Origin: Patescibacteria group bacterium
GTDB lineage: Bacteria > Patescibacteriota > Minisyncoccia > Phycocordibacterales > Phycocordibacteraceae
NCBI GenBank assembly: GCA_040390125.1
Contig: JAZJYZ010000001.1
Coordinates: 570,396-634,395 of the forward strand
Direction: 5' to 3'
DNA length: 64,000 nt
Positions 3,593 through 40,892 of this stretch are shown here, one piece after another. Under the pieces are notes generated by a model. The model was given only the letters and a program-made list of their open reading frames with translations. It was not told the origin of the DNA and did not search any database. How positions within the stretch are numbered: the first letter of the stretch is position 1; every line of letters starts with the position of its first letter. Made by a program: the position numbers and the translations under genes.

Positions 3593-4045
3593 ATGCTCCA
3601 AGCTCAAATCAAAACAGACATGGTGGCAGCAATGAAGGCACGTGAAGCCCTCAAAGTTGAAGTGCTCCGTGGGCTTATGTCTGCCTGCACCAATGAACTC
3701 GTTGCCCTGAAACGCCTTCCTACAGACCAACTTGCTGACCAAGAAGTGCTGACAGTTATCCGTCGTGAAGTTAAAAAACGAAAAGATGCATTTGAACAAT
3801 TCACTAAAGGCAATCGTCCTGAACTAGCTCAAAAAGAAGAAGCTGAACGTGCAATACTCGAAGCATATCTTCCCGCAATGATGAGCCAAGATGATATTCG
3901 CAAGATTGCAGAAGCTAAAAAAATAGAAATGGGCGTCACCGATAAAAAAGAAGCCGGCAAATTTATGGGAGCTCTCATGAAAGACCTCCAAGGAAAAGCT
4001 GACGGTGCGGATGTTAAAGCGGTAATTGACTCACTTTTTGTATAA
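3593..4045 (+). CDS. GatB/YqeY domain-containing protein
   Basis: 150 aa; MLQAQIKTDMVAAMKAREALKVEVLRGL... matches the YqeY/GatB C-terminal domain family. Confidence 0.8.
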   Translation: MLQAQIKTDMVAAMKAREALKVEVLRGLMSACTNELVALKRLPTDQLADQEVLTVIRREVKKRKDAFEQFTKGNRPELAQKEEAERAILEAYLPAMMSQDDIRKIAEAKKIEMGVTDKKEAGKFMGALMKDLQGKADGADVKAVIDSLFV

Positions 4046-8736: not shown

Positions 8737-8837
8737 AGATATAGTGTATACCGGATGAGAAGGCTGTATGGTTACAGAGATCTATACAACAAAACACACC
8801 TCTAGAGGTGTGTTTTGTTTCTAATGCCGTAGGTGTG

Positions 8838-9197
8838 CTATTGAGCGAACCAACTACTTCGCCAATCTTTCATCATCTGTATCTCCCCTTTTTGGGCAGT
8901 AATGATGTCGCCTCCGAGCTTTATGAGCTCTGGTCGCTTTGTACCCTTAAGGAGTGTTTCTGCCATCTCAACGGCTCCTTCGTGATGAATAATCATCTCC
9001 TCCAGAAAAGCTTTATCGAGTTCGTCTCCGCTTTTACCCGACAAACCCATTGTCATGCCGTTCATAGCACCGTGCATACTAGACATGTCGGACTGTACTT
9101 GGACTACTGGGCGACTTACTCCTACAAAGTAGCCAATCACAAGGCCGAGTATAAGAGTGAGAAGTCCAATGATAAGAGTGTTGTTTTTTATTTCCAT
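8838..9197 (-). CDS. DUF305 domain protein (metal-binding four-helix bundle, copper-resistance associated)
   Basis: 119 aa with an N-terminal TM helix and the EMIIHHEGAVEMA motif characteristic of DUF305. Confidence 0.7.
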   Translation of the reverse strand: MEIKNNTLIIGLLTLILGLVIGYFVGVSRPVVQVQSDMSSMHGAMNGMTMGLSGKSGDELDKAFLEEMIIHHEGAVEMAETLLKGTKRPELIKLGGDIITAQKGEIQMMKDWRSSWFAQ

Positions 9198-9237
9198 AGT
9201 TTTTTATGAGTGTAAATAATACAAAACAAAAAACTAT

Positions 9238-9639
9238 CTACGGTGCACGAGGACTTATACTACTTGCAAGAAAAAGCGATATTAGAAAATATGCATACGA
9301 ATCCCTTGAATGCAGAGAAGTGACGTGTTGTGTTGAAGTATCTGGTGGATCAAAAAGATGACGGAACAACATTGGTGCAAACAGTGTTGCAAAAAGGAGT
9401 GCTCCAAAAGTAACAAACTCAGGGGTAAGTCCCGCAAACAGTGTGTGCCATGAAGTGAGATGGGCAAAAATATTCATTTCACACAAGACCGCTTCGCCCG
9501 GCATAAACGGGCAATCGTCCATACTACCCATGCCGTGATGACTCATTCCCGCCATGGCAAGTGGTGCAAAAATGCCTACCAAAAGAAAAGTGAGGATAAG
9601 CAAAGCGGAGAGGAGCTGATTTTTAGACAAATTAAACAC
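9238..9639 (-). CDS. Membrane protein with Met/His-rich motif (MSHHGMGSMDDCPFMPG)
   Basis: 133 aa and multi-TM. The Met/His cluster resembles Cu(I)-binding Mets motifs. Confidence 0.5.
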   Translation of the reverse strand: MFNLSKNQLLSALLILTFLLVGIFAPLAMAGMSHHGMGSMDDCPFMPGEAVLCEMNIFAHLTSWHTLFAGLTPEFVTFGALLFATLFAPMLFRHLFDPPDTSTQHVTSLHSRDSYAYFLISLFLASSISPRAP

Positions 9640-9645
9640 AAAAGG

Positions 9646-10116
9646 TTAGTGATTATGGTGATCTCCTAAAACCGCATGACCTTTGCCTCGGGCTATGAGC
9701 CACCTATTAACGGGATATGCCGCAACTCCGGCAATGGCAAGACTGACGGCTAAACTCCCCCAAAACATGAAGGTAGTAAGTTCAGCATCCAGTGCACCTG
9801 GAATAAAAACCATTACCACGTTGTCCACAATTTCCATGGTCGTTATAGAAAGTGTGTCAGAAGCGAATGCGAGTCCTAGTGCCGTACCAAGTGCCATGCC
9901 AGAGCGTACAAGAGGCAAAAGCGTCAAAGAATATCCGAAGGCAAATGCCAAAGCAATCGCAATGAATATTGTGACTGCATTGCTAAGACCGAATGCCGTA
10001 CCAATAACCATACCGAAGACCTCACCTATGGCACATCCTGTGAGGCAGTGAAGCGTGGCACTGAAAGCAACCTTGTTCAAAGACGTATGTGCATGTGCAT
10101 GATGTGTATGTTCCAT
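9646..10116 (-). CDS. DUF4396 domain membrane protein with His-rich termini
   Basis: 156 aa. The N-terminus is MEHTHHAHAH and the C-terminus GDHHNH. The LHCLTGCAIGEV core matches DUF4396. Confidence 0.65.
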   Translation of the reverse strand: MEHTHHAHAHTSLNKVAFSATLHCLTGCAIGEVFGMVIGTAFGLSNAVTIFIAIALAFAFGYSLTLLPLVRSGMALGTALGLAFASDTLSITTMEIVDNVVMVFIPGALDAELTTFMFWGSLAVSLAIAGVAAYPVNRWLIARGKGHAVLGDHHNH

Positions 10117-10141
10117 AGTTGGAGATTCAAATCATTACGAA

Positions 10142-10303
10142 TTATCCTGCAACAGCAAGTGCGACGCCCAAGTAATACGGCCACACGACGACTGCCAACA
10201 CTCCTTCCCAGAAGCTCAAGTGCAAGTAGCCAATGGTGAAGAGCCAAGCCGCAATCCAGAATCCTCCTGAGAGTGTGTGATGTTCTATTTTTATTTTATC
10301 CAT
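10142..10303 (-). CDS. Small hydrophobic ORF (53 aa) leading the DUF4396 gene
   Basis: Reverse translation MDKIKIEHHTLSGGFWIAAWLFTIGYLHLSFWEGVLAVVVWPYYLGVALAVAG. It is below the ORF-track size cutoff, and coordinates are hand-derived. Confidence 0.3.
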   Translation of the reverse strand: MDKIKIEHHTLSGGFWIAAWLFTIGYLHLSFWEGVLAVVVWPYYLGVALAVAG

Positions 10304-10328
10304 ACTTTTAAGATGCATTACATACTAA

Positions 10329-10538
10329 TCATTGAGTAATAAGACGTTCCGGCACAATGAATGTTGCAACGATGTACGCAAGGACCCCTGGCACAAAGCC
10401 GGTAAAGATCACGACCAAGAGCCAGATGACTCGTATGAGCACAGGATCGATATCAAAATACTCCCCTACTCCACCGCAAATACCTGCGAGTACTTTGTCC
10501 GTGGAGCTTTTGTAGAGTCTTTTTGGTTTTGTGTGCAT
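10329..10538 (-). CDS. PspC domain-containing protein
   Basis: 69 aa; LAGICGGVGEYFDIDPVLIRVIWLL is the PspC domain signature, followed by a TM helix. Confidence 0.75.
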   Translation of the reverse strand: MHTKPKRLYKSSTDKVLAGICGGVGEYFDIDPVLIRVIWLLVVIFTGFVPGVLAYIVATFIVPERLITQ

Positions 10539-10579
10539 GGCATGAAGTATTATCTCTGAGGTAATAGTACACCTTCCAT

Positions 10580-10630
10580 GTATAAAATTTGCAAACCGTA
10601 ATTATTGACATTCTTGTTAAACGTATTATA
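10580..10630 (+). promoter_or_regulatory. Sigma-70-like promoter upstream of ORF 10639
   Basis: TTGACA ... TATTAT/ATATTT at about 17-bp spacing in an AT-rich leader. A similar TTGACAT...TACA arrangement recurs at 11150-11195 upstream of the paralog at 11199. Confidence 0.4.
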
Positions 10631-10638
10631 TTTTAAAA

Positions 10639-10902
10639 ATGCTAGAAGAAAACAGCAAACTAAGAAGATTACGGATTAGACTAGAACGTAGCAACGAAAG
10701 CGTTGGCGAGGGCCACGTTCGACAAGAAGCCGGTTGGATGGTTTGCGATGTAGTGGTTTCCGGACCAGAAGGCGAAAAGACATTAACCTTTCAGCCTGAC
10801 TCATCTAATCGATTAGACCGAATAGATAGGACTGGTCACGTATCTGGAAGACTGAGAGATGCTGCACTATTTGCTGCAAAAAAAGCTTTGGGAATTTTAT
10901 AA
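10639..10902 (+). CDS. Hypothetical small protein (paralog 1 of a duplicated pair)
   Basis: 87 aa. The C-terminal ...GRLRDAALFAAKKALG aligns with ...GILRAALLEAKKVFKG of ORF 11199..11483. A W/C/V.S.G.T..L.F core is shared. Confidence 0.5.
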   Translation: MLEENSKLRRLRIRLERSNESVGEGHVRQEAGWMVCDVVVSGPEGEKTLTFQPDSSNRLDRIDRTGHVSGRLRDAALFAAKKALGIL

Positions 10903-10934
10903 CAAAGATAGCAAGACAGTTCGTGAGATAATCA

Positions 10935-11138
10935 TTGAACGTGAGCGATGAAAAAATCATGCGTGCTCGAATTGAGCGTTTTTCGCTTTGGCTCGGCAAA
11001 CAACCTGCTTCAGTAGCTCGAGCAAGAGAGTTTTTAAGATTTATGCAAATTGATATGTCCCCCGATGAACTCGTTAGGGCTTTGCAATTAAAGCGAGATC
11101 CAAAGATGAATGCACACAAACAGTTCGAGATGTTTTGA
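10935..11138 (+). CDS. Hypothetical small protein between the two paralogs
   Basis: 67-aa ORF, same strand, no recognisable domain. Confidence 0.35.
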   Translation: MNVSDEKIMRARIERFSLWLGKQPASVARAREFLRFMQIDMSPDELVRALQLKRDPKMNAHKQFEMF

Positions 11139-11198
11139 AGTAAAAAATGTAACTCAAGTAACTTTTGACATCTTTAACAAATACATTACAGTACCCGA

Positions 11199-11483
11199 AT
11201 GAGTATCGACGGTAGATTCGCCCGTGGGCACATACCCTCCCCTGGTGCAACTTTAGAAAGAGGCGAAACCGTACAAGCTATCGGAAGATGGTGGCCGGAA
11301 GGAGCTGACAAATGTTGCACAATTCGTGTCACCAGTCGAGGTAGAACTGTAAATCTGCAATTTGTTCTTCGTCCCTTCTGGGACACCCCAAGACGAGTAG
11401 ATAATAATGGAAAAATGACTGACGGCATTTTGCGTGCCGCACTACTAGAGGCTAAAAAGGTTTTTAAAGGTAACTCTGACTGA
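11199..11483 (+). CDS. Hypothetical small protein (paralog 2)
   Basis: 94 aa, alignable to ORF 10639..10902, with its own TTGACA-type promoter upstream. Confidence 0.5.
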   Translation: MSIDGRFARGHIPSPGATLERGETVQAIGRWWPEGADKCCTIRVTSRGRTVNLQFVLRPFWDTPRRVDNNGKMTDGILRAALLEAKKVFKGNSD

Positions 11484-11509
11484 CCCACTGTCACTCAAAA
11501 GGCTACGTG

Positions 11510-12883
11510 TTATTTAGGACGAGCCACCACCTTCGCCTCTGTCACTTCTTCAAATCCCCACCGTCCGTGCAAACGGCCTAAGCCTGAGCGTTTGTAGCCA
11601 CCAAAAGGATTCATTGGTCGCACATAGCTCACGCCATTTATACTCACCATTCCAGTTTTGAGAGACGCACTCACTCTTTCTGCCTTTACCTTGTCCTTCG
11701 TGTACACATACGCACCAAGACCGTAGTCAGTATCATTCGCAAGTATTACTGCCTCTTCTTCGGTTTTGAATTTGATGATTGGAAGCACAGGGCCAAACAC
11801 TTCTTCCTGCCACACTCGCATGGTTGGAGTGATGTTAATGAGAAGTGTGGGCTCATAGTATGCACCAAGTAGCCCTGGCTGTTTGCCTCCTGTAAGTACA
11901 AAGGCACCCTTGCCTACCGCATCTGCCACTTGAAGCTCGAGGGTATTCAATTGTTGCTTGGAAGCCAAGGGTCCCATTGTTGTGGTCGGACTCATGGGAT
12001 CACCTAAGCGAACAAGGGTATCCAATCTTCCTTTGAGCATCTGCAACATCTTGTCCCACACATTTTCGTGCACCAACAAACGCTTCAGCGCATCACACGA
12101 CTGCCCTGCATTCAAGAATCGAGAATGATATATACTCCCCACTGCCACATCCAAGTCAGCATCTTCAAACACTATCCCTGGTGCAGAGCCCCCAAGTTCC
12201 ATCACAATTTTCTTCATACCCGCCCCTGCAGTGCGATACAAAGATTCGCCCGCAAGTGTGCTCCCGGTAAAACAAATGAGGTCTATATTTTGGCGTGCTA
12301 AAAGTGCACCCACAGGCCCTTTCCCATACACCTCACTAAAGACTCCGAGAGGTACACCGCTTTCTTTCAGTATCTTTTCAATGAGCTGTCCGCACAGGGG
12401 CACTTCTTCAGAGTGTTTAAAAACTACCGTATTGCCCGCAATCAAGTTCTGTCCACATCCCCAGACGAAATTTGATGCAGGATAATTCCATGGCACGATT
12501 ATACCCACAACGCCCCGAGGCTCACGGTACACAGTGTGAATCTCCTCGCTATTTTCATAGGTAACTTCAGGAGCGAGATATTTTGGAGCGTTATCCAAAT
12601 ACCAAGAAAAGTAGCGAAGCGCATCTTGCACGTCTTCCCTGCTCTCCTTGATAGGCATGCCCATCTCTTTGGTGGCAAGTGTGGCAAACTCTTCCGCCCT
12701 TGAGTTGAGGTTTTGAACGACTCTACGAAGGATTTCGGAGCGACCGGCAACTCCGAGAGCACGCCAGGCAGGGCTCGCATCTCTTGCAGCCTTTACTTTT
12801 GCGATTATCTCTTCTCCCGTTGAAATAGCGATTGAGCCTAGAATCGAGAAGTCATGCGGGCTCATGGAGCGGAAACGCTTCAT
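11510..12883 (-). CDS. NAD(P)-dependent aldehyde dehydrogenase
   Basis: 457 aa with FTGSTLAGESL, ELGGSAPGIVFEDAD and NAGQSCDA (catalytic Cys) motifs. Confidence 0.9.
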   Translation of the reverse strand: MKRFRSMSPHDFSILGSIAISTGEEIIAKVKAARDASPAWRALGVAGRSEILRRVVQNLNSRAEEFATLATKEMGMPIKESREDVQDALRYFSWYLDNAPKYLAPEVTYENSEEIHTVYREPRGVVGIIVPWNYPASNFVWGCGQNLIAGNTVVFKHSEEVPLCGQLIEKILKESGVPLGVFSEVYGKGPVGALLARQNIDLICFTGSTLAGESLYRTAGAGMKKIVMELGGSAPGIVFEDADLDVAVGSIYHSRFLNAGQSCDALKRLLVHENVWDKMLQMLKGRLDTLVRLGDPMSPTTTMGPLASKQQLNTLELQVADAVGKGAFVLTGGKQPGLLGAYYEPTLLINITPTMRVWQEEVFGPVLPIIKFKTEEEAVILANDTDYGLGAYVYTKDKVKAERVSASLKTGMVSINGVSYVRPMNPFGGYKRSGLGRLHGRWGFEEVTEAKVVARPK

Positions 12884-13004
12884 GAGGGGAATTATACGCT
12901 GGGGGTGAGAGAGGGAGTGGGTTTATTCACTGATGGTCTTTCCTCTAGGAGAAATGGTGATTGTTCGCATTTCCACATTCCCCTTACAAGATTGCATCGT
13001 TAGA

Positions 13005-15707
13005 TTAGTTTTCAGGATTAGGTGTTTCGTACAGCCCGTTCGCTGTGAGCACAGCTTTTAGCGTTTCCGGATCATCTTTTATCTCAAACCTCTGTTTGAG
13101 ACGTTCGTGATTCATAACCTCATTCCCACCCCAGAATGCGGCTTTAGCGAGGAGCTCCTTACTTACTTTTGCTCTTTTGGTGATTACCACTAAATCCCCC
13201 AAAGGAATATAGATATTGAAATTACCTTTGTCGTCCCACACAAACCAGTCTCTTGAATTCAAAACATCTTCATAAGAACGCCAGCCCTGTTGCAATGGAA
13301 AATTCTTCCAAAGTACCTCTAATGCCCTCGGGTGTCTTTCCAGTGTACGTGTTGCGGAGTTTCGCATTTGTTTAATACCTAACCGATCATCTTTTTTACC
13401 CGACCATGTCTGATATAAAACAAAGAACGGATGATCTTCTTTTGAGAAGATATCTTGTTTGCCATCAAAATACCTTTCTTTTACCTCACCAAAGACGTGT
13501 TTGATCGAACTTTTTATTTCTTCCTCGTATCCTTTACTTCTCAAGGTTTGCAAGGCGAAAGAAAGGCGTGCATGAACGCTACCAGAGCCCCTAGTGTTAT
13601 TCCCGAAAGAGTTGAGAATAGTAAGCTTCACGTAACTTTGAACATCTTTACTGTAAAATATCTCTTTCAAAAGATCCCAAACTTCTTTCAATTCTTCTGA
13701 CGGCTCTACAATTTGTGGCTCCTGCTCAATAATTGCTAGAGCAAGAAAGATAGCTCTGTAAATCGCATCCTGGTAAACAGAATCCCATTCAGTGTTTTTT
13801 TCTATTGAAAAAGCTTGATCCTTCTTTGTGGACTTGTGAATCAGTCGCCTAATAACTTCCCGAAGAGTCTCTAAAAGCTTTTCCTTGTTGTTAACTTGGC
13901 TTTGAGAAAGGAATCTTGCATACAAAGCCAATTCATCGCCCGGAAGAGCCTTTATAACAGAAGCCCCTTTTGAAATATGCTGATCGTAGATTTCGCGACT
14001 GATCCGATACGTACTCTTATTTTGAGGGGACTCCTTAGTAAAAGTGAGCCACTCTAGCATTTTTTCCGGATCAGAGGTTGAACGAGAATCCCAATACTTC
14101 TGTCTGCCTATGTCAGTCATTTCTGGTGAAGACGGAAATTCTATCCATCTATGAGCCACTAGAGTCAAGAGATCGCCTATATGTTTCTGTTTTTCTGCCG
14201 GTACATCAATACCCATTTCATGCTTTATCCAGCGAAAAATATCACTGATTTTTTCTTCCTGTAGATTTTTTCTATAAAAATACGATCGCATCCCTCCATT
14301 GTTGACGTACTCAGAATACGGACGTACATGTTCAATGGTTTTTCTTATAAAATCAATAAGATACGGAAATCGTATTTTGATGTACTCCAAAACAATTAAG
14401 TCAGCCAATCTAATTGGTAAGCCTAATTTTTTGTCTTCTGAAGAAAACATGGACAGGAAGAATCTAACCGAATTCATCGTTCTTACGAAAGCACGTGGAG
14501 TTTCATCTATAAACACACTAAGTGCAAACTGAAGGGCTGTTTTATCGTCTTCTTGAAAACTTCCATGCGGGAATGAGGAGATACCATATATCTCATGTGA
14601 CCCTACTTTCTTAATCTCTCTCTCCATCAGGCCTTGAGAATCAGTCATCTGATCAAACAAAGTTTTAATGAAAATCTGCTTTTGAAAGGTTGACGGGGTC
14701 GGAATAAAAATCTGAGTTCCTATACTCTTTGGATCATCAAATACAAATTTCCCGACTAGCGCCCCTTTTTCAGATACATTATTGGTTATCACGTCCTGTA
14801 AATCTCGTGGTGAGATGCAGAGAAGAAATACGATTTGTACTGGCAAACCGCCTCTGCCTTCATATTTGAAACGTTCAATAATTTCTATGACGCGATAGAT
14901 TTCCTCCAAATGAGCTCTCTCAAGCTCATCAACAACCACAATGAATTGTCTTTCAGAAAAAAGAGGGATGTTGCCGAAAAATTTTCCAACTCTCCGAGAA
15001 CAGAGTTGCGGATTATTTACCGGGTCCAAGTATTTGTCCCAGACCTTTGCTTTTGTGGGGAATAGTCCGATCCCGTTCAAAGTCAGAAAACGGATAAGTT
15101 CGGCGAATAAACCGTTCTTTGATTCTCTCAAAATAGCTTCCATGACAGGAAGTTGATCTGTCCAACCCAACCTGAAAGGATAGTTTTTTCCTATGGCTTC
15201 AAACCATCGTTCTTGAAAGAGCTTCTCAAAATCTTTTGTTTCGTTCGTTTCTGTGAGAGAAATGTAGCTGTATAACAATGAATCTTTCTTCATCTGCTCA
15301 ACGATCATCCTAGTCAGAGAAGACTTGCCACTGCCCATCTCACCAAAAATACCAACAACACTTACGTAGTCTTCAAGTTCCTGAATGCTTTTTGCATAAT
15401 TCTTTGAAGGAACTTTGAAGTCTAATAAATCTCGTCCAAGTCCAACCGACCAAGGGGAAAACCTAAAACCTCTGTAGGATAAGTTTTTATTGAAAATAGA
15501 TAATCCTGCCAGTGCAACTCCGAGGATAAAAAAACCTAGCAAGGTGATTTCAACTTCTGCGGTTATCCATTTCCCAATATAATGAACTCCCCAGAAGGTA
15601 AAGGTTATAAAAGTAAGTATTATGAAAAGAAGCCATGTTATAGAAAGGAAACGGTATTGTCTCCAAACGTATTTCAGTAAATCCAGAAGTCTCTTCATTA
15701 ACTCCAT
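13005..15707 (-). CDS. Membrane-anchored KAP-family P-loop NTPase (PifA/Tmn-like), 900 aa
   Basis: Two N-terminal TM helices, then Walker A GIFGEMGSGKSSL (KAP-type GxWGxGKS variant), Walker B FIVVVDELERAH (KAP-type hhhhDDLDR variant) and a large alpha-helical C-terminal region. Local AT content looks higher than in neighbouring housekeeping genes. Confidence 0.65.
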   Translation of the reverse strand: MELMKRLLDLLKYVWRQYRFLSITWLLFIILTFITFTFWGVHYIGKWITAEVEITLLGFFILGVALAGLSIFNKNLSYRGFRFSPWSVGLGRDLLDFKVPSKNYAKSIQELEDYVSVVGIFGEMGSGKSSLTRMIVEQMKKDSLLYSYISLTETNETKDFEKLFQERWFEAIGKNYPFRLGWTDQLPVMEAILRESKNGLFAELIRFLTLNGIGLFPTKAKVWDKYLDPVNNPQLCSRRVGKFFGNIPLFSERQFIVVVDELERAHLEEIYRVIEIIERFKYEGRGGLPVQIVFLLCISPRDLQDVITNNVSEKGALVGKFVFDDPKSIGTQIFIPTPSTFQKQIFIKTLFDQMTDSQGLMEREIKKVGSHEIYGISSFPHGSFQEDDKTALQFALSVFIDETPRAFVRTMNSVRFFLSMFSSEDKKLGLPIRLADLIVLEYIKIRFPYLIDFIRKTIEHVRPYSEYVNNGGMRSYFYRKNLQEEKISDIFRWIKHEMGIDVPAEKQKHIGDLLTLVAHRWIEFPSSPEMTDIGRQKYWDSRSTSDPEKMLEWLTFTKESPQNKSTYRISREIYDQHISKGASVIKALPGDELALYARFLSQSQVNNKEKLLETLREVIRRLIHKSTKKDQAFSIEKNTEWDSVYQDAIYRAIFLALAIIEQEPQIVEPSEELKEVWDLLKEIFYSKDVQSYVKLTILNSFGNNTRGSGSVHARLSFALQTLRSKGYEEEIKSSIKHVFGEVKERYFDGKQDIFSKEDHPFFVLYQTWSGKKDDRLGIKQMRNSATRTLERHPRALEVLWKNFPLQQGWRSYEDVLNSRDWFVWDDKGNFNIYIPLGDLVVITKRAKVSKELLAKAAFWGGNEVMNHERLKQRFEIKDDPETLKAVLTANGLYETPNPEN

Positions 15708-15828
15708 ATTCTCATATTACTGCGCAATCTGCCTTCTTACCCAAATGAAGTACTCATAAAATGAAGAAACGGAGTAAATCACCTTTTCTTAAGCCTCACG
15801 GGGAAACCAATCATGGCTCTAGTAATAC

Positions 15829-16386
15829 CTATTTTAAATACTGAAACGGCACCAAATCTACTTTAGCAAATAAACGCTGTGAACTAGATTCTTTTATCAT
15901 ACCCATTGAAGGTGCACCCGCAAAACCTATGTACTCAACCTCCTTTTTCTTTCCATTTCTAACATATTTAATTGCTGGAATCAGGTCGGTATCCGAACTA
16001 ATTACAATAGCAACATCATATAAATTGTCGGCCGCTCCTATGACTAAATCAACAGCTAACTTAACATCAACTCCTTTCTCTCTTATCTTTCCACTGTCGT
16101 ACATAATCTTCCCTGATTTCACCTCGAAACCCGATGTTCGCAAGGCTTCCAGAAACATCTGTTGTTTCTTTACACGATTTTCACCTTCAGATGTATTGTC
16201 ATAATTTTTAACAATTCCAACATAGTATCTTTTAGATACTAAATCTCTTGCTCCAACAATATGTGAAATAAATGCCGAATGATCGAACTTCTTTCCAAGT
16301 TCTGGGAGTCCGAAGGCTTTCAATCTATTGTAAGTATTACTACCATCAATATAAACAGCGACTCTCTGTTTTTTATTGAATATCAT
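15829..16386 (-). CDS. NYN domain (LabA-like, PIN-fold) ribonuclease
   Basis: 185 aa with VAVYIDGSNTY (first acidic motif) and VISSDTDLIPAIKYVR (SxDxD motif), both NYN/DUF88 hallmarks. Confidence 0.8.
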   Translation of the reverse strand: MIFNKKQRVAVYIDGSNTYNRLKAFGLPELGKKFDHSAFISHIVGARDLVSKRYYVGIVKNYDNTSEGENRVKKQQMFLEALRTSGFEVKSGKIMYDSGKIREKGVDVKLAVDLVIGAADNLYDVAIVISSDTDLIPAIKYVRNGKKKEVEYIGFAGAPSMGMIKESSSQRLFAKVDLVPFQYLK

Positions 16387-16561
16387 TAGACCATCATATC
16401 AAAAGAAACCACCCCTGCCCGAAGGACAGAGGTGGTGAGGTTAGAAATATATTTTACCACTATATGAAATATTTTACTAGAGACTATGTGAATAGCCCAC
16501 AAGGCATCTCTATTTTGTCTTTAGTGTCCATGAAATGGGGTCAGCCACCATTTCTCACGGA

Positions 16562-16913
16562 TTAGCCACCATCTTTACGTGTATGAACAGCTATATTTTC
16601 AATTTTTCCTATAGGGGGAGATAAACGAGCACGAGAAGCATAGTGTTTTGCAACGGGGAAAGGAAAAACAAACCTCGAATCCGTTTTTACGTCAGTAAAT
16701 CGATTATTGCCCTCGAGAAAATGAGCTACCTCGTGAGCTTTACGAAACACAGTGTCTAAAAAGAGATAATCAAAAAAAATATGTGCAGTGCTCCCTTCAA
16801 TTTCTAGAGTGCTTTCTTCTCTGCCTGGAAACAAATTCTTTACTTGTGCTTCTATCGTTGATTTCATGAGGGGTTTATTATACATATCTTTTATACTTAA
16901 GTCAAAACACATT
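16562..16913 (-). CDS. Small HExxH-motif protein (possible ImmA/IrrE-like metallopeptidase fragment)
   Basis: The ORF track starts at a TTG (17002) inside a hairpin-rich region, so the start is more likely ATG at about 16913 (MCFDLSIKD...). It contains FRKAHEVAHFLEG. A hairpin plus T-rich tail follows at 16405-16440. Confidence 0.35.
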
Positions 16914-17192
16914 TTCTGACAAGAAAAATGGTGACGGGCACCATTTCTTAAACCTTGCGGGGAAACGGCAAGTTTTGGGGTCACTTGTGGCCCACAACTC
17001 AAAACTTTGCCGTCGCAGAGTATTTAAATACTCTGCTTGGGGTCACTTGTGGTCATCCGTCACTAAGTATTTTGTTTCGGAAACTCACAAAATACTAAGT
17101 GCGCTCGACCCCGCCTCGCCCGTCGCAGGCGACATGGCTCCGGCTGTCACAAAGTCAAAAAAATGCCGAGCAGTCGGCATGTTTTTGTACTT

Positions 17193-17213
17193 TGTGACCC
17201 CACGGAGAATCGC
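17193..17213 (-). repeat. Direct repeat of the tRNA-Glu 3' end (18/20 nt identical over T-loop to acceptor), att-like
   Basis: The reverse complement of 17193-17213 is GGCGATTCTCCGTGGGGTCAC, against tRNA ...TCGATTCCCCGTGGGGTCAC. It has the same orientation as the tRNA and lies 130 bp from its 3' end. Confidence 0.45.
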
Positions 17214-17343
17214 CTCTCGTCGTTGCTACGACTCGAAACCTACGGTCGCTCTTCGCTCCCTGCGGCCCGCGGTTCGATTCCCAGCTGGAGTATTCTCCAG
17301 ACACAAGAAAACGCCCGCTTCTGAAGCGGGAATTTTTCTTGTG

Positions 17344-17418
17344 TGGTGACCCCACGGGGAATCGAACCCCGATTCCATCCTTGAGAAGGATGTGTCCTAA
17401 CCGTTAGACGATAGGGCC
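17344..17418 (-). tRNA. tRNA-Glu (anticodon CUC), CCA encoded
   Basis: Folded by hand: acceptor GGCCCUA/UGGGGUC, D-stem GUCU/GGAC, anticodon stem CAUCC/GGAUG with loop UUCUCAA, T-arm CGGGG-UUCGAUU-CCCCG, discriminator A, CCA. A hairpin terminator follows at 17311-17340. Confidence 0.85.
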
Positions 17419-17611
17419 AGTTTAAATAGCTTACAGCTTTCAGGTGCCAGCTTTCAGCTTAAAATACAGCATCCAAGAGGTTTTCTCAATCCCCCACCCT
17501 CACCACTTCTTATTTTTCTATTCCAACTTGGTTATAGTATCAAGTTGGAAAGAAAAAGAAGTTAGTTTTTCTTATAATCCCTTCAGATCCGAGATGAAGA
17601 GAACTAGCTTC

Positions 17612-17962
17612 TCATTCCACAACTACAAGATGAGGTCTTTTGGGAGGTTTGGTCGGAGCGGGTTGAGATGCTTTTCTTGCTTCATCTGCTCTATCCTCTC
17701 TTCCCTCCTCTATCACACCTAACCTAGACATGACCTTTCCAATATGCTCAAACTCTTTTACAAGCGCCCCTCGCTTTCCCGATGTATTTGCACCCAAGGC
17801 TCGCTGAATCAAATTGGATAACCGTAGAGTATTCCTTGCGGATAGATGATCTGTGCGGTTGAGGATTATTTCGATATCAGCAAATGCCGCATCATTCAAC
17901 CACTCTACGAACTCTCTCGCTTCGCTTAATTTGTCCTCAAGTCTTTCTCTTTTTATTACCAT
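17612..17962 (-). CDS. Hypothetical protein flanked by heptamer-type inverted repeats
   Basis: The ORF opens at 18007, with a plausible start at MVIKRERLED. It has no clear domain and is bracketed by inverted heptamer arms at 17431-17460 and 18078-18112. Confidence 0.4.
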   Translation of the reverse strand: MVIKRERLEDKLSEAREFVEWLNDAAFADIEIILNRTDHLSARNTLRLSNLIQRALGANTSGKRGALVKEFEHIGKVMSRLGVIEEGREDRADEARKASQPAPTKPPKRPHLVVVE

Positions 17963-18116
17963 TTCTTTGATAAGTAGGATACCTACTATGTGTCCATAAT
18001 AAAACAAAAATATAAAATGTCAAAGAAATCTAACCTGGGGTATTACGCAAAGCAAATAACTTCTCCCTCCTCCCCAAAAGCTGGAAGCTGACAGCTGGAA
18101 CCTGAAAGCTTATCTT

Positions 18117-19418
18117 TCACCCTCTCGACAGCCACTCCGCATCTTGGCGGACAAGGAAGTCTTTCGCTCGCTCGGGTTCTAGCATGAGAGATTTCACGAT
18201 ACGCTCCATACGCATCGATTGAGAACCTTTGACTAAAATCACGTCGCCAGGCTGAACCATAGACACAAGTGCTACTCCGGCATCGGCTCCCCTCTCACAC
18301 TCGAGAATAGTATTCTCCGCCATACCGGCTTCACGTGCACCTTCAGCAACGTTTTTTGTGCGAACTCCAACGGTGACTAATGTATCTGCTGATTGCGGAA
18401 CCAATGCGCCAATGCGACGGTGTTCATCAACCGAAAAGCTTCCAAGCTCCAACATGTCAGCCAACACAGCAATACGCCTGCCTGTCCGTGGAATGTCTGA
18501 AAGTGCAGAGAGGGCCTCTTCGGTGGCGACAGGAGATGCGTTGTACGTGTCATCAATAATGACAGACCCTCGAATGCCCGGGATCAACCGCATGCGACCA
18601 CTTGGAGGTTCATGTTTCTGGAACGTGAGGCAAGCGTCTTTCAAAGGAACACCAACACCTAGTGCAACACCTATTCCTGCCAACACTGAATACACATGAG
18701 AGCGACCAGCGACATCAGGAATAAATACTGCTCCTTGGTCGCCCTGGTATGTAACAGTGAAAGAAACGCCAGTGGGCATTCCATCTTTCTCAGTTGGATG
18801 GAACGAGCTTGCTTTGAGCTCGGCGTCATCTCCAAAACCAAATGTGATTCGCTCTACTCCATTTTTTGTTGTCGCAGAGCGAACATGCTCGTCGTCCGCA
18901 TTACCAACAAAAACGCCGCCCTCTTCAAGCCACCCCGCAGGGGCAAGCTCTTCTTTTATGACTTCTTCGGGAGATGCATAAAACTCCACGTGCACAGAAA
19001 TGTCAGGAAATCGTGTGGCAACTACTACATCAGGCTTCAGCCATGCAAGAGATTTAGTAATATCCCCTGGCCTGTCTGCTCCCACTTCAATAATTAACCA
19101 CTTTGGATACGGGGCATTCAGAATAATGAGTGACACGCCGTCCACAAGATTTCTCATCCACTGAAAGAGGTTTGACCAACCGTTAGGAACGCCAAGTACG
19201 GTCAAGGGAACGCCAATGTCGCTATTAAAACTCTTTTCACTTCGTCGAACAAAAAAAGAACTTGAAAGTGCCGTATAGATTGCATCTTTTGCAGAAGTCT
19301 TACCCACGCTTCCTGTAACGGCAATAATTTTTGGACGATACTTCTTCAGCACCAGTTTTGCCTCTAGTGTCAAAAGCCATACAATGCCGTGACGAAAAAG
19401 TTCTTTGAGATTGTGCAT
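18117..19418 (-). CDS. murF: UDP-N-acetylmuramoyl-tripeptide--D-alanyl-D-alanine ligase
   Basis: 433 aa with the Mur ligase P-loop KIIAVTGSVGKTSAKD and the MurF-type NSDIGVPLTVL motif. Confidence 0.88.
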   Translation of the reverse strand: MHNLKELFRHGIVWLLTLEAKLVLKKYRPKIIAVTGSVGKTSAKDAIYTALSSSFFVRRSEKSFNSDIGVPLTVLGVPNGWSNLFQWMRNLVDGVSLIILNAPYPKWLIIEVGADRPGDITKSLAWLKPDVVVATRFPDISVHVEFYASPEEVIKEELAPAGWLEEGGVFVGNADDEHVRSATTKNGVERITFGFGDDAELKASSFHPTEKDGMPTGVSFTVTYQGDQGAVFIPDVAGRSHVYSVLAGIGVALGVGVPLKDACLTFQKHEPPSGRMRLIPGIRGSVIIDDTYNASPVATEEALSALSDIPRTGRRIAVLADMLELGSFSVDEHRRIGALVPQSADTLVTVGVRTKNVAEGAREAGMAENTILECERGADAGVALVSMVQPGDVILVKGSQSMRMERIVKSLMLEPERAKDFLVRQDAEWLSRG

Positions 19419-19463
19419 ACGAAATGATCTAGAGTTTTCAATTACACGTACCGACCCTCACAT

Positions 19464-21203
19464 CTACTCGCCACTTGGGGTACGGTCCGGAGGAATTTCA
19501 TAATAGTTTATCAGAAAATGCACAGTATTCATGAACGGCTGAGTCCACGTCTCTGAGGCATACTGTGCTCCCTTAGGATACACCGCAAAAAAGAACACGA
19601 GAAACTTCGGTTCATACGCAGGAAAATAGCCAAAAAATGAATGGAGATACCTGTCCGTGTAATATCCACGAGCGTCGGGCCTAGCAATTTGTGCTGTTCC
19701 AGTTTTTGCAGCAATACTGTAGTCAGTCATTTTCGCCCTACCACCTTGGAGAGCATCATCCACAACAGTGACAAGCATTCGAGTAATGATTTCATCACTC
19801 TCTTTACTGATGGCCTGCACGGGCGGGCTCCATCCAAGTTTTTTATTTATGCCACCGCCATAGCGAAGCTCAACGCCCACATGTGGAGCCGGCACCACAC
19901 CACCGTTTGCCAACGTTGCGAGTGCTCGAGCCATCGCAACCGGAGTAATGGCAATTCCCTGCCCGAACGAAGCGGTAGCATACTCAACGGCACGAGGGCT
20001 TTCCAGGTTACTCACCAAGGGAGATGCTTCGTTCGGCAAATCAATACCTGTTTCACTGGCGATGCCAAACTTTTTTAAATACTCAGCAAATTTTGTTGTA
20101 CCCATTCTTTTGACGACGAAAGAAACGCCCGTATTGAGTGATTGATTCAATACTTCTTGCATAGGAACAACACCACGAGCTTTGTGGTCGTAGTTGTTGA
20201 TACGTGAACCATCAAGAATAAGAAATCCTTTGTCGTCATAGGTGGTGGTCGGGGTGACGGCACCAGAATCAATGCCTGCAGCCATAGTGATTGCTTTCAT
20301 TGTGGAGCCGAATTCATACACACGCTCTACAAGCGGGTTTGCGAATGCATTTGGGTCTGCGTTTTTGAAATCGTTCAAATCAAAACCCGGACGTGATGCC
20401 ATAGCTACAATGGAGCCGGTTTTGGGATCCATAATGATGGCGCCCACGGTATCGGAGTGCCAGGCTTCATCATATTTTTTGAGAACGTCTTCCAAAAATT
20501 GTTGCACGGACGGCTCGAGAGAGGTTACAAGATCAGCGCCAGGCTCCACAGTGTCGGGAGAAAATTTCGCACGAATGTTTGTAAAGAGATCCGCAAAGAA
20601 ATTCACATACAATCCGCCATCTGCACGTGAGAGTGCGCCATTGTAATAACGCTCTAACCCATACTGACCAGCAACACTTTTACCATCTGCACCAAAACCC
20701 AAAAATCCAATAGTTTGTGCCCCAAGAGTTTTTCCTGGATAGAAACGCCAATGCGATGCCAAAACCTGTACTCCTGGTATTTTTAACGCAGAAATAGCAT
20801 CTCCCGTTTCTGTAGACACCTGCTTTGCAATTTCTGCATAGACACTCTCTTTCTTCGAGGCTTTTTCAAGAAATATGGACTGATCAAGTTCAGGTAGGAA
20901 CTCTTTGAGGGTATTAAATGTGCCCCGGGCATCCGCAAGGCGGGACGGATTGAGAACAATTGTGTAGCCCGCAGCTATAGTAGCGGCGGAAAGAGGAGCG
21001 CCGTCCTTCGTGGTGAAGAGAATACTACCTCTATCTATTTGGTTGGTGCTTTGTTGTACGTATTGGCCCTCTGCTTTGAGGCGGTATTCCTTACCGTGCA
21101 CAACTTGTAGAAAGTATAATCGCACGAGCAATATAAGTGCGATAGCTATGAGGGAGAGCGCAATGAGACGTATGCGAAAAGCAAACTTTGACTTAGCGGT
21201 CAT
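19464..21203 (-). CDS. ftsI: Penicillin-binding protein (FtsI-type class B transpeptidase)
   Basis: 579 aa with an N-terminal TM helix and the SxxK (STMK), SxN (SLN) and KTGTA motifs, in dcw-cluster context. Confidence 0.88.
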   Translation of the reverse strand: MTAKSKFAFRIRLIALSLIAIALILLVRLYFLQVVHGKEYRLKAEGQYVQQSTNQIDRGSILFTTKDGAPLSAATIAAGYTIVLNPSRLADARGTFNTLKEFLPELDQSIFLEKASKKESVYAEIAKQVSTETGDAISALKIPGVQVLASHWRFYPGKTLGAQTIGFLGFGADGKSVAGQYGLERYYNGALSRADGGLYVNFFADLFTNIRAKFSPDTVEPGADLVTSLEPSVQQFLEDVLKKYDEAWHSDTVGAIIMDPKTGSIVAMASRPGFDLNDFKNADPNAFANPLVERVYEFGSTMKAITMAAGIDSGAVTPTTTYDDKGFLILDGSRINNYDHKARGVVPMQEVLNQSLNTGVSFVVKRMGTTKFAEYLKKFGIASETGIDLPNEASPLVSNLESPRAVEYATASFGQGIAITPVAMARALATLANGGVVPAPHVGVELRYGGGINKKLGWSPPVQAISKESDEIITRMLVTVVDDALQGGRAKMTDYSIAAKTGTAQIARPDARGYYTDRYLHSFFGYFPAYEPKFLVFFFAVYPKGAQYASETWTQPFMNTVHFLINYYEIPPDRTPSGE

Positions 21204-28996: not shown

Positions 28997-29754
28997 GGGG
29001 TCGAAATAATTCGAATAAAATCAAGTTCCGCAAAAGAAAATGGCAATGCAACCCGAACTTTTTGCGACACGTCACGTGCCTCAAAAGCAACACTCTGAAC
29101 AGTACCTAAAATTAAGGATTCAGTTCCGGGGAACCGCACAACATCGCCAACTACCACTTCCACACCCTGTGGCACAGAGAGTTCAAATGCACCACCACCC
29201 AAACCCTTCGCCACTGCGACCGCAGAAGGCTCGCCTAAAATAACATCTGCCGAGACACCTGCACTCGAAAACAAACTCACTACTGCGGTTGTAGTGTCTG
29301 CCGTGATTACACGCCCTAAAGCGACTCCTTCATACACCGCCATATCATTTTGATGTACTCCACTATCCTGCCCTATATCGATAATAAGCGTATCGTAATT
29401 AGTTTGAGGAGGTCGTGCGATAACACGACCCGTGCTCCCTGAAGAAACTGCTCGAGCTCCTACAGATTTTCTTAAGTTTTCATTTTCACGAACAAGAAGA
29501 CTGTACAGTAGTGATTGATAGGCAATGCGATTCAAATCGGCATCCGCAACACTCAAACGTGCGATGAGTGCATCTTTTGAAAGTGCACTGTACTCTCCAC
29601 TCGTTACACGAGGCGCTACTATAGTTTCAAAAATTCCCCGAGCGTATGAGCCAATATTCGAACCGAAAAAAAATAGAAGGACTAAACATCCAAGCGCAAA
29701 AGCGCCTAGAAGTAGACGAAGAAACCAATTAGAATCCTGCGAGCGCCCCATCAT
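28993..29754 (-). CDS. mreC: Rod shape-determining protein MreC
   Basis: 253 aa with an N-terminal TM helix, coiled coil and beta-rich C-terminal half, overlapping mreB by 26 nt. Confidence 0.7.
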   Translation of the reverse strand: MMGRSQDSNWFLRLLLGAFALGCLVLLFFFGSNIGSYARGIFETIVAPRVTSGEYSALSKDALIARLSVADADLNRIAYQSLLYSLLVRENENLRKSVGARAVSSGSTGRVIARPPQTNYDTLIIDIGQDSGVHQNDMAVYEGVALGRVITADTTTAVVSLFSSAGVSADVILGEPSAVAVAKGLGGGAFELSVPQGVEVVVGDVVRFPGTESLILGTVQSVAFEARDVSQKVRVALPFSFAELDFIRIISTP

Positions 29755-30790
29755 CGTCGTCTACTAATACTGAGCGATATTTTGCAACGTCTTCAAGAAC
29801 AATTCCGGTACCTCGAACCACAGTAGTCAGTGGGTCGTCTACGACATGAATCGGTACTTTAAGCTCGGCCGCTAACAATTCAGGGAGTCCACGCAAAAGC
29901 GCCCCTCCACCGGTAAGAAAAATACCAAGACGCATAACATCCGAAACGACTTCAGGAGGTGCCGTTTCAATAACCTCTTTTATAGCTTCAACAATAGAAG
30001 AAACTGACGAACCAATTGCCTCACGTATGTCTGCATCTGTAATGACAATTTCACGAGGCAACCCCGTAACGAGGTCACGCCCACGAATGTGTGTCTCTAA
30101 CGCCACAGGAAGTTTAAGTGCAGAGCCTACTGCAACCTTGACGTCCTCAGCCGTTCGCTCGCCTATCAGTATTTTAAATTCACTGCGTATATAGCTTGCA
30201 ATGTCATCATTCAACACATCTCCTGCAATACGAATATTCTTTGCACGCACAATGCCACCCAAAGACATCAACGCAATGTCGGTTGTACCTCCTCCAATAT
30301 CAACGAGCATGCTTCCAACGGCACTCTCAACTGGAAGCCGTGCTCCCAAAGCTGCCGCCATTGGCTCTTCAATAATGAACACTTCACGTGCACCCGCATT
30401 CCTCGCAGCGTCTCGGACAGCACGAATCTCTACATTCGTAATGCCTGATGGCACACCAATGACCACTCGAGGCCCCAGTGGCATGCGTTCCGTGTGCGCC
30501 TTCTGCAAAAGATATGTGAGCATTTCTTCAGTCACTTCGAAATCAGAAATTACACCTTCAACGAGAGGCCGAACAGCAACAATGTGCGTCGGTGTTCTGC
30601 CTATCATGTCTCTTGCCGCTGCACCGACCGCAACTACCTGCCCCGTTTTTTGATTCAACGCAACAACCGATGGTTCGGTAATAACAATGCCCTTGCCTTT
30701 AAGATAGACGAGGGTGTTGGCGGTGCCGAGATCGATGCCAATGTCCTTCGAGAACCGTTCAGTTATTTTTCGAGGGATTCTAAAAGCCAT
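29729..30790 (-). CDS. mreB: Rod shape-determining protein MreB
   Basis: 353 aa; IGIDLGTANTLVY and the actin-like ATPase motifs. Confidence 0.92.
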   Translation of the reverse strand: MAFRIPRKITERFSKDIGIDLGTANTLVYLKGKGIVITEPSVVALNQKTGQVVAVGAAARDMIGRTPTHIVAVRPLVEGVISDFEVTEEMLTYLLQKAHTERMPLGPRVVIGVPSGITNVEIRAVRDAARNAGAREVFIIEEPMAAALGARLPVESAVGSMLVDIGGGTTDIALMSLGGIVRAKNIRIAGDVLNDDIASYIRSEFKILIGERTAEDVKVAVGSALKLPVALETHIRGRDLVTGLPREIVITDADIREAIGSSVSSIVEAIKEVIETAPPEVVSDVMRLGIFLTGGGALLRGLPELLAAELKVPIHVVDDPLTTVVRGTGIVLEDVAKYRSVLVDDDDGALAGF

Positions 30791-33173: not shown

Positions 33174-33190
33174 ACTGTTCTGATCTAAAT

Positions 33191-40798: not shown

Positions 40799-40892
40799 GG
40801 CGAATAATTGTAGCAGATGGAGCTCCAAACCCGATTCTTGACAGTACCCTTTCAGTATTGTTAAGTATGAAGATTGAAATTAATTTTAAAGC

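Follow-up and report, generated by a model that had tools for sequence, protein, structure and literature searches.

Within the 64-kb window analysed here (64,000 nt of contig JAZJYZ010000001.1, to which all coordinates refer), the sole tRNA gene is an intact tRNA-Glu(CTC), on which ARAGORN and Rfam agree, and on its 3' side lie a hairpin-dense block (16913-17343) and a small islet encoding a NYN nuclease and a KAP-family NTPase. The locus is a tRNA-anchored additive defence island of a known kind, and we consider it probable, at roughly 0.62, that in this Patescibacteria (Paceibacteria-like) genome the block forms the tRNA-proximal end of a genomic island of the additive type, in which DNA units would repeatedly recombine into the T-loop of the tRNA gene with a breakpoint at T55|C56. 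We observe a direct repeat of the tRNA 3' end, homology of its flank to insert-free loci, recurrence of the arrangement at other tRNAs, a module of conserved structure and replacement of the cargo in a congener. An earlier note on this DNA, made from the sequence alone, had read the block as scars of repeated integration and excision beside a horizontally acquired islet. Loci of relatives are designated by the letter L and a number.

The displaced copy of the tRNA 3' end, CGATTCtCCGTGGGGTCAC (Table 1), is the T-loop-to-acceptor copy in tRNA orientation that the earlier note had described. BLAST aligns it with the tRNA at E = 0.003 for the 64-kb window and 3e-4 for the 6-kb neighbourhood, and the similarity grows to 38 nt at 74% once the following hairpin and T-run are counted. 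That it is a former tRNA end was borne out by its flank, since a profile search with the window block recovered homologues of the fragment and the ~145 nt that follow it: 17059-17212 aligns with L017 13044-13183 and L104 5955-6109, where the counterpart of the window's flank begins immediately after the intact tRNA, and a covariance model of the flank (R1, see below) matches L006 12545-12692, again directly after the intact tRNA. In L028 the homologous sequence follows a displaced fragment, as it does in the window. L017, L104 and L006 thus serve as the state without the insert, and because fragment and flank directly follow the intact tRNA there, the window has gained, relative to them, ~150 nt at T55|C56, namely new tRNA positions 56-76, the terminator at 17314-17330 and ~100 nt more that include an inverted T-arm piece. 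The 3' part of the present tRNA-Glu, from C56 onward, would on this comparison have come with the latest insertion.

The insert itself (E_A) consists of the terminator (17311-17340), a hairpin CTGGAG-n4-CTCCAG (17285-17300), the inverted T-arm copy (17268-17282) and a right arm of ~55 nt that ends ...ACGACGAGAGG and resembles, by eye only, the arms of L008 and L010 (GTTTCGA...ACGAGACGAGG). It contains no open reading frame (ORF) matching a protein family and is not a copy of adjoining sequence. The plus-strand T-arm copy GGTTCGATTCCC is exact, as the earlier note had it, and extends to 15 nt at 93% (17268-17282); on its own it is borderline (BLAST E = 0.2 in the window, chance expectation 0.18), and it gains credibility because an equal layout recurs in relatives. 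Inserts of comparable layout were found in L028 (196 nt), L049 (261 nt), L034 (168 nt), L066 (~200 nt) and L008 (2016 nt), and fragments at equivalent positions in L008, L028 and L049 (tRNA-Glu), L010 (tRNA-Ser) and L014 (tRNA-Tyr). The note had also derived two TGGGGTCAC 9-mers from the tRNA. Both are present, at 16976 and 17038 rather than at 16978 and 17037, but as tRNA matches they are at chance level (E = 12 each, with ~20 further 9-mer matches in the window). They form the core of an exact 15-nt direct repeat, TGGGGTCACTTGTGG (16976-16990 and 17038-17052, plus strand), and the stretch aligned with the first copy in relatives reads GACACAAAG or GACCACATAG, which is not tRNA-like.

A survey of 98 tRNAs in 84 Patescibacteria loci indicated that this arrangement is not peculiar to the window. 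Co-oriented 3' fragments lie downstream of 11 of the 98 tRNAs (nine at 68-270 nt, one at 24 nt and one at ~2 kb), eight tRNAs, the window's included, are followed at 38-90 nt by an inverted copy of their own 3' end, with a ninth such copy at +234 (L014), and 5' fragments lie upstream of seven of the 98; the tRNAs concerned include Glu, Ser, Tyr, Val, Ala and Gly. Among eight junctions inspected, the fragment starts at C56 in five: the window, L008, L028 (all Glu), L010 (Ser) and L014 (Tyr). For the inverted copies, the mean length of the longest exact match was 12.6 nt when they were compared with the 3' end of the resident tRNA and 6.7 nt with other tRNAs. In L008 the insert lies between tRNA-Glu and a perfect 19-nt fragment and carries a GmrSD/HEC-06 gene as its only gene, and in L017 an HEPN AbiU2 gene stands just past the homologue of the flank. 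The tRNA-Glu(CTC) gene lies near the same Mur-ligase gene in 48 Patescibacteria loci, mostly immediately downstream of it, and in all 80 relatives of a genome scan upstream synteny is kept and downstream synteny is lost.

The 5' fragments deserve description of their own. They are co-oriented with the intact gene, comprise positions 1 to ~18-29 and lie 40-300 nt upstream of it (L006 12913-12933; L020 12086-12108 and 20145-20190; L023 13006-13023; L066 17308-17329; L018 near 3890-4000). Those of tRNA-Glu in L006, L020 and L066 stop right after the D-loop GGTTA(G), and the fragment in L006 is followed by a hairpin with a CTGC loop like hairpin H1 of the module described below. To judge from their layout, these fragments look like a mirror-image, 5'-side form of the insertion process. 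In addition, tRNA-Glu(CTC) is inverted relative to the Mur ligase in L003-L006, L010, L028, L041, L046, L048, L066-L068 and L070, which suggests recurrent inversion at this locus; in L028 the entire segment of tRNA, insert, fragment and module faces back toward the Mur ligase.

The hairpins of the block call for a different account from that of the earlier note. All the hairpins and the terminator that it named were found, within 1-2 nt of the coordinates it gave, and the block folds far more stably than expected (431 nt; -187 kcal/mol against -133 +/- 5.9 for dinucleotide shuffles, z = -9.1). The segment 17059-17201 is no assemblage of integration scars: it is a conserved module of three stem-loops (SL1, SL2 and SL3) with compensatory changes, and the two best hairpins of the note are SL1 and SL3. 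The note's own caveat, that the fragment copies might belong to a conserved non-coding RNA, applies in part, in that the last 8 nt of the fragment lie within SL1. In RNAalifold's three stem-loops, 14 of 36 pairs carry compensatory changes across four sequences (window, L028, L017 and L104). The closing C-G pair of SL3 is replaced by T-A in two relatives, and the stem of H1 varies freely around its fixed loop CTGC.

Table 1. Features of the tRNA-Glu(CTC) locus and of the adjoining islet, ordered outward from the tRNA; coordinates are those of the 64-kb window.
Feature	Position	Strand	Description
tRNA-Glu(CTC), intact	17344-17418	minus	ARAGORN; Rfam tRNA, 58.9 bits
Insert E_A	17213-17343	minus	130 nt between the intact tRNA and the displaced 3' end
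Inverted T-arm copy GGTTCGATTCCC	17271-17282	plus	Exact copy of tRNA positions 51-62, across the breakpoint
Displaced tRNA-Glu 3' end CGATTCtCCGTGGGGTCAC	17194-17212	minus	18/19 identical to tRNA positions 55-73
CE module	17059-17201	minus	Three stem-loops, conserved; R1 score 135 bits (window part of the R1 seed alignment)
SL1	17147-17197	minus	tRNA-end TCAC pairs with downstream GTGA; encloses H1
H1, inner hairpin of SL1	17163-17180	minus	Conserved loop CTGC; plus strand ATGCCGA-GCAG-TCGGCAT, A/T runs
SL2	17113-17144	minus	Closed by covarying G-N-C/G-N-C pairs
GGGGTCGAG box	17102-17112	minus	
SL3	17061-17101	minus	CACTTAGT...ACTTAGTG; 15-nt arms at 93%; the ACTAAGTATTTTGT hairpin
Distal hairpin block	16965-17058	minus	Two TGGGGTCACTTGTGG copies, palindrome AGAGTATTTAAATACTCT, long hairpin 16965-17013
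Degenerate tRNA-3'-end-like unit TTCCCCGCAAGGTT	16951-16964	minus	Before ORF116a
Terminator-like hairpin AAATGGTG-n5-CACCATTT and T-run	16926-16947	minus	Follows the TTCCCCGCAAGGTT unit
ORF116a	16562-16912	minus	Orphan small protein; only cassette common with L110
Weak third unit and hairpin	16532-16561	minus	Before NYN, with terminator 16408-16436
NYN-domain nuclease gene	15829-16386	minus	Resembles HEC-09/LabA; Pfam NYN 2.7e-20; PADLOC HEC-09 1.1e-19
Degenerate unit TTCCCCGTGAGGCT	15792-15805	minus	Before KAP; hairpin remnant after it (to 15767)
KAP-family P-loop NTPase gene	13005-15707	minus	900 aa; Pfam KAP_NTPase 5.6e-11

Model R1 was built from the window, L028, L017 and L104 and has further members in L028, L006, L014, L008, L038 and L010, with the match inside the L028 insert at E = 3e-9. 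These members follow tRNA-Glu (L006, L008, L010), tRNA-Tyr (L014), tRNA-Ser (L010) and tRNA-Val (L038). In an alignment of 14 members pairing is kept in 93% of cells, compared with 63% in shuffles, and the covariation score is 0.526, compared with 0.05-0.09 when partners are slid, these statistics being biased toward structure by the fitting of the alignment to the model. Everything that defines the family is found in the window, namely H1 with its CTGC loop, SL2, the GGGGTCG box and SL3, directly 3' of a tRNA end or fragment. The module corresponds to no Rfam family: Rfam 15, run over 16300-18200, returned the tRNA only, with all other matches far under threshold. A 19-mer of the module had three matches in metagenomes, of which L104 alone is a true member; three scans of viral contigs for module motifs gave nothing or chance matches, and loose regular expressions gave noise only. 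An ORF that overlaps the block (16975-17349, plus strand) has no protein-family match. The module appears to be an undescribed structured building block.

The part of the block beyond SL3 is less readily placed. The palindrome AGAGTATTTAAATACTCT (17019-17036) is perfect, and the sequence beside SL3 aligns in part with L028, L017 and L104 (GACCACAAG against GACACAAAG or GACCACATAG); L110 has no counterpart of 16965-17058, and this stretch may either extend the module or be an older unit that has decayed. Model R1 matches the 130-nt insert and 16913-17058 only below its threshold, and their membership of the module family is a comparison by eye.

One could regard the whole block as a host RNA, or a 3' trailer or terminator of the tRNA inherited with it, whose tRNA pieces arose by partial duplication and by template switching at quasi-palindromes. 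Modules do lie directly downstream of tRNAs and in their orientation, SL1 takes in the final bases of the tRNA, selection acts on the structure, and on the tRNA-sense strand G-U pairs exceed A-C mismatches (18 to 7 cells, weak evidence for an RNA in an alignment fitted to the model). In L018 (tRNA-Ala) and L110, moreover, the tRNA end, the terminator and the inverted copy make up one long near-perfect palindrome, as expected from template switching, and L079 presents a simple tandem partial duplication of 34 nt. Against these observations stand the foreign GmrSD gene between perfect repeats in L008 and the distribution of the module, which is absent from the congener L110 and present in hosts that are distant by their Mur ligase (only 41-48% identity), a patchiness easier to reconcile with a mobile unit than with a host RNA inherited vertically. 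Furthermore, the inverted T-loop piece of the window has no acceptor piece with it, although a growing palindrome would copy the acceptor first, the 130-nt insert is no copy of neighbouring sequence, the same T-loop breakpoint is used in different tRNAs, and in loci where the antisense copy is split a foreign hairpin stands between its two segments. A purely local origin is disfavoured because of the L008 cargo, the patchy module and the T-loop piece that lacks its acceptor piece, and we hold the inherited-RNA explanation to be improbable.

The congener L110 (75-85% DNA identity, with the same Mur-ligase and aldehyde-dehydrogenase flanks) provided a comparison of the kind that the earlier note had proposed. 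Homology with L110 extends over 22999-18132, the tRNA (98.6%), 16954-16558 (84%; terminator, promoter and ORF116a) and 12941-11510 (aldehyde dehydrogenase, 85%). Two intervals are non-homologous. In place of 17346-16955 L110 has 218 nt that hold a terminator, two degenerate fragments and an antisense module in split form, without any match to the window's module model, and in place of 16557-12942, with NYN and KAP, it has four unrelated genes, one of them TIR-like. On this alignment the module region and the cargo alike are replacement polymorphisms between close relatives, set between shared flanks. The comparison supports the horizontal variability that the earlier note ascribed to the islet, and it agrees with a G+C content of 36-41% over ~13000-16700 against 45-50% in the flanks; contrary to the note, the variable NYN/KAP segment does not adjoin the tRNA and starts only past ORF116a (16558).

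Repetition of the process, also claimed in the note, is supported by degenerate tRNA-3'-end-like units before ORF116a and KAP. The unit before ORF116a corresponds by position to L110 9903-9958 (AATTCCCGTGGGGTTT and the same hairpin), and in L110 the ORF116a homologue is flanked by further fragments of this kind, at 9852 and 10360. The TTCCCCGTGAGGCT unit before KAP is identical to the tRNA at 11 of 12 positions over TTCCCCGTGGGG, with an exact match of 9 nt in tRNA orientation, and it resembles the ORF116a unit at 86% over 28 nt. A pattern for these units occurs three times in the window, all co-oriented within 1.6 kb, at the tRNA or downstream of it, and one of them the tRNA itself, a count that is illustrative only, as the pattern was derived from the copies counted.

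These observations can be assembled into a working model. Each unit would bring a new 3' end to replace that of the tRNA, together with a hairpin of the terminator type and a structured module that is non-coding, and some would add a single gene, usually of the defence type. Every event would shift the former tRNA 3' end and the sequence following it further downstream, and cassettes would later be replaced or lost. Outward from the tRNA, the order would then be a cargo-less 130-nt unit, a 19-nt tRNA end fused to a 145-nt module, hairpins, and the single-gene cassettes ORF116a, NYN and KAP, with ORF116a and KAP each placed after a decayed tRNA-end repeat and a hairpin. We infer that catalysis is provided by a site-specific recombinase supplied in trans, and that the module and the inverted target copy constitute the element's recombination site rather than debris. 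Excision of the 130-nt unit would join tRNA position 55 to CGATTCTCCG...AAAGTAC, and a circular or tandem junction would join ...ACGACGAGAGG to CGATTCCCCGTGGGGTCACCA.

Several observations weigh against this model. Pfam detected no recombinase of any class in the islet or in the 29 window ORFs scanned, and the integrases or integrase pseudogenes that the earlier note proposed to look for nearby were not found; neither was a recombinase beside the inserts of L008, L017, L020, L023, L034, L049, L066 and L079. Neither in the window nor in L110 does a tRNA-like repeat mark the far end of the islet (~12942-12975), in keeping with the note's failure to find a distal att repeat, and no junction of an excised or circular form was observed. 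All three units that precede the ORF116a, NYN and KAP genes are degenerate, and they were counted with a pattern drawn from their own sequences. ORF116a, which is shared with L110, lies nearer the tRNA than the cassettes that are not shared, the opposite of a newest-is-nearest order, and its position therefore requires cassette replacement or homologous exchange. Cargo-less inserts far outnumber those bearing cargo. Finally, the block of identity begins two bases inside the T-loop and not at the stem-loop boundary, which is a poor fit to the textbook core of a tyrosine integrase, in which the stems are bound and the 7-nt loop is the overlap.

The target-matched inverted copy, the free covariation of the stems and the cargo-less majority leave room for a folded single-strand or guide-type site. 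In L008, L028, L010 (Ser) and L014 (Tyr) the inverted copy is split, an antisense acceptor segment and an antisense T stem-loop flanking H1, and L110 has an equal split layout with a different hairpin loop. One may picture an integron-like cassette platform of Patescibacteria that acts through a folded single-strand or RNA-guided site, with its enzyme encoded elsewhere and no element-encoded integrase. The inverted copy would pair with the element's own tRNA 3' end, in the manner of attC or of the CTX attP, or, as a variant, act as an RNA guide like the bridge RNAs of IS110; units would enter the T-loop (perhaps the D-loop) of several tRNA species, and the module would be a programmable attachment device. 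Inverted copies that match the resident tRNA and span the breakpoint agree with this proposal, and so do the conserved scaffold around the split segments and the absence of an integrase near the inserts examined. Freely covarying stems with fixed loops and boxes fit single-strand hairpins, not protein-bound duplex palindromes, and the cargo is of the single-gene kind, each gene following a repeat and a hairpin. Several objections stand against it: no candidate enzyme was found; in contrast to the target loops of bridge RNAs, the crossover is at the end and not in the middle of the paired region; the GTTC-type and GAAC-type boxes are inside-out relative to attC; terminators stand between the tRNA and many modules, so that transcription of the module is not assured; the ratio of G-U to A-C cells cited above is modest; by eye, the sequence that continues the inverted copy shows no complementarity to the right end of the element; and the module motif is absent from the viral contigs scanned. 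We regard this proposal as possible, on balance unlikely.

Hairpins of the H1 type were also noted elsewhere. Units with N6-CAA-CTGC-TTG-N6 hairpins follow tRNA-Ser, -Tyr, -Val and -Glu, some of them two in tandem (L010 12891-13260; L014 5262-5700; L018 5169-5480; L038 5888-6100; L069 5254-5560), and among 22 CTGC-loop hairpins with a stem of at least 7 pairs in 2.7 Mb scanned, about half lie beside tRNA genes or fragments. At tRNA-Ala of L018 the antisense 3'-end copy is instead contiguous (19 nt) and is followed by an SL2-type scaffold.

Subterminal hairpins could also serve as the end signals of a transposon, and rolling-circle (HUH, IS91- or Helitron-like) or single-strand (IS200/IS605-like) transposition into the GTTC hairpin of the T-loop would place the breakpoint within the loop's GTT|C, where it is found. 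IS91 inserts beside GTTC/CTTG. The right ends of units, a hairpin followed by a short ...GAC or ...TAC, and the termination of the 5' fragments of L006, L020 and L066 after the D-loop motif would suit such a mechanism. No HUH or Y1 transposase gene was seen near any unit examined, and site-specific integration, rather than these transposons, typically leaves a direct repeat like the 19-nt one by which the tRNA is restored, which leads us to consider transposition very improbable. Site-specific, tRNA-anchored addition is, in our opinion, the better description of the locus.

An exact 35-mer of the tRNA has no match in JGI metagenomes. The 3' 21-mer of the tRNA, searched in viral contigs as a candidate attP, has 17 matches, of which 14 are phage tRNA-Glu genes, nearly all with a TTC anticodon, and three are, by eye, ends of other tRNA-like genes; none is an attP. 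Logan assemblies of two organisms from different samples break at position 45 of tRNA-Glu (L001 corresponds to window 17374-20598, L082 to window 8790-17236, and L112 starts at L110 9668). In the window's organism there is a second break, at 17236, besides that at 17374. Strain heterogeneity downstream of the tRNA, or a k-mer shared with another tRNA-Glu gene, could produce all of these breaks.

The surroundings of the block are as follows. On the 5' side of the tRNA lies the end of a cell-wall and division cluster (MraZ, MraW, PBP and the Mur ligase at 18117-19418), whose Mur ligase places the window in Patescibacteria/Paceibacteria, with 48% identity to the best species representative; on the 3' side follow, outward, ORF116a, the NYN nuclease, the KAP NTPase and an aldehyde dehydrogenase. 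ORF116a has no family match and only two relatives among 5.8 billion proteins, one of them close (L110, 76% amino-acid identity); its true start is likely M16, downstream of a promoter-like site at 16905-16877 (score 11/12). The KAP protein matches PADLOC PifA in the P-loop region only (4.7e-8). KAP homologues in other Patescibacteria adjoin large serine recombinases in defence islands beside tRNA-Gln and tRNA-Asn (L107 4529-5998; L108 404-2137), and the L108 recombinase gene runs antisense over the 3' half of tRNA-Asn; within the sequence examined these loci have no displaced tRNA fragment, and the association is suggestive, with no link to the module family.

A hairpin-like 25-mer, GAGAAATGGTGATTGTTCGCATTTC (12949-12973), lies at the islet's far edge, 8 nt beyond the block that L110 has in common with the window; it is 72% identical to the terminator hairpin before ORF116a (16923-16947) and has no tRNA-like segment beside it. 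Between the 5' side of the tRNA and the Mur ligase, a 690-nt segment (17428-18110) contains an orphan 116-aa ORF (17612-17962), for which no paralogy with ORF116a was found. The segment is edged by 26-33-nt inverted repeats of CAGCTTTCAG-like units (17428-17460 and 18077-18110, 92% complementary) and is missing where the tRNA of relatives directly follows the Mur ligase. As the CAGCTTTCAG-type repeat is also intergenic at two other sites in L110 (4079-4113 and 5459-5502), it is a dispersed short repeat. Elsewhere in the window, 32112-35225 encodes a glutamate 5-kinase with a PUA domain, a pyrroline-5-carboxylate reductase and an aldehyde-dehydrogenase-family protein that may be ProA-like, together resembling proline biosynthesis; Patescibacteria are generally thought to lack most amino-acid biosynthesis. 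Two MreB paralogues are present (29729-30790 and 39782-40828).

Patescibacteria have genomes of ~1 Mb in which few mobile elements have been recognised, and little is understood of the ways in which they gain and exchange defence genes. The present locus and at least 10 comparable tRNA loci point to a compact route of gain, by small, mostly single-gene units stacked at T-loops, each with a tRNA end and a conserved folded module of its own. If the module should prove to be the recombination determinant, it would represent a new, possibly reprogrammable attachment-site architecture and could provide a practical marker of flexible islands in uncultured ultra-small bacteria. Otherwise, the locus still illustrates clearly, for the Patescibacteria phylum, the tRNA-proximal type of additive defence island.

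Among known systems, ordinary intrinsic terminators of tRNA genes bear some likeness to the hairpins at 17314-17330 and 17163-17180, which are G+C-rich, have T-runs, lie directly after a tRNA 3' end (intact or displaced) and both score as bidirectional terminator-like sites; they differ in that H1 of the relatives keeps its CTGC loop, lacks a T-run and sits inside a larger conserved structure. The split antisense segments around H1 resemble the guide loop of an IS110 bridge RNA, with the crossover at the end rather than the centre, and no DEDD recombinase gene lies near any unit. Integrons comprise IntI, attI and attC sites with RYYYAAC...GTTRRRY cores, the core being 7 nt. Integron attC sites and the CTX-phage attP are alike to the units described here in their single-gene cassettes, a poorly conserved palindromic site with covarying stems and a recombinase outside the cassette, and an inverted core copy could likewise rebuild a duplex site from one strand. 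The units differ in that the repeat in the window is 14-19 nt of tRNA, the GTTCGAT and ATCGAAC boxes stand in the reverse of the attC order and the platform is a tRNA instead of attI or dif; no tyrosine recombinase was detected in the tested ORFs, nor IntI or attI, and a unit consists of TTCCCCGYRRGG and a hairpin. Cis-mobilizable elements (CIMEs) are kilobase-sized deletion derivatives of known integrative and conjugative elements with known integrases. Like them, the window units have att-type repeats on both sides, no recombination genes and tandem stacking at a tRNA-type site, as in 17213-17343, which lies between the regenerated 3' end and the fragment and has no family-matching ORF; unlike CIMEs, they have no known parent element or integrase.

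Islands in the 3' part of tRNA genes (the classes of Williams, 2002; Islander, PMC4383910) share with the locus a regenerated tRNA, a displaced 3'-end repeat, a T-loop breakpoint, anomalous G+C content, content that varies among relatives and several repeats per tRNA. By the features used in these works, the repeat, the canonical T-loop sublocation and the polymorphism with unoccupied sites are all found here and an integrase is not; the locus differs further in its mostly 130-260-nt inserts, in identity that runs from C56 inside the loop, and in units that carry a multi-hairpin module and an inverted copy of the target. A published model of tRNA-proximal additive islands with partial tRNAs, which the layout of the locus matches, is offered by the tycheposons of Prochlorococcus (10.1101/2020.12.28.424599). 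Their hallmark tyrosine recombinase and replication module were not found here (the islet has no integrase, primase or helicase), the units of the window are far smaller, and tycheposons have no described counterpart of the structured module (10.1101/2020.12.28.424599). The likeness lies in a streamlined host, growth at the tRNA-proximal end with partial tRNAs and remnants, adaptive or defence cargo, and a heterogeneity that peaks beside the tRNA (10.1101/2020.12.28.424599).

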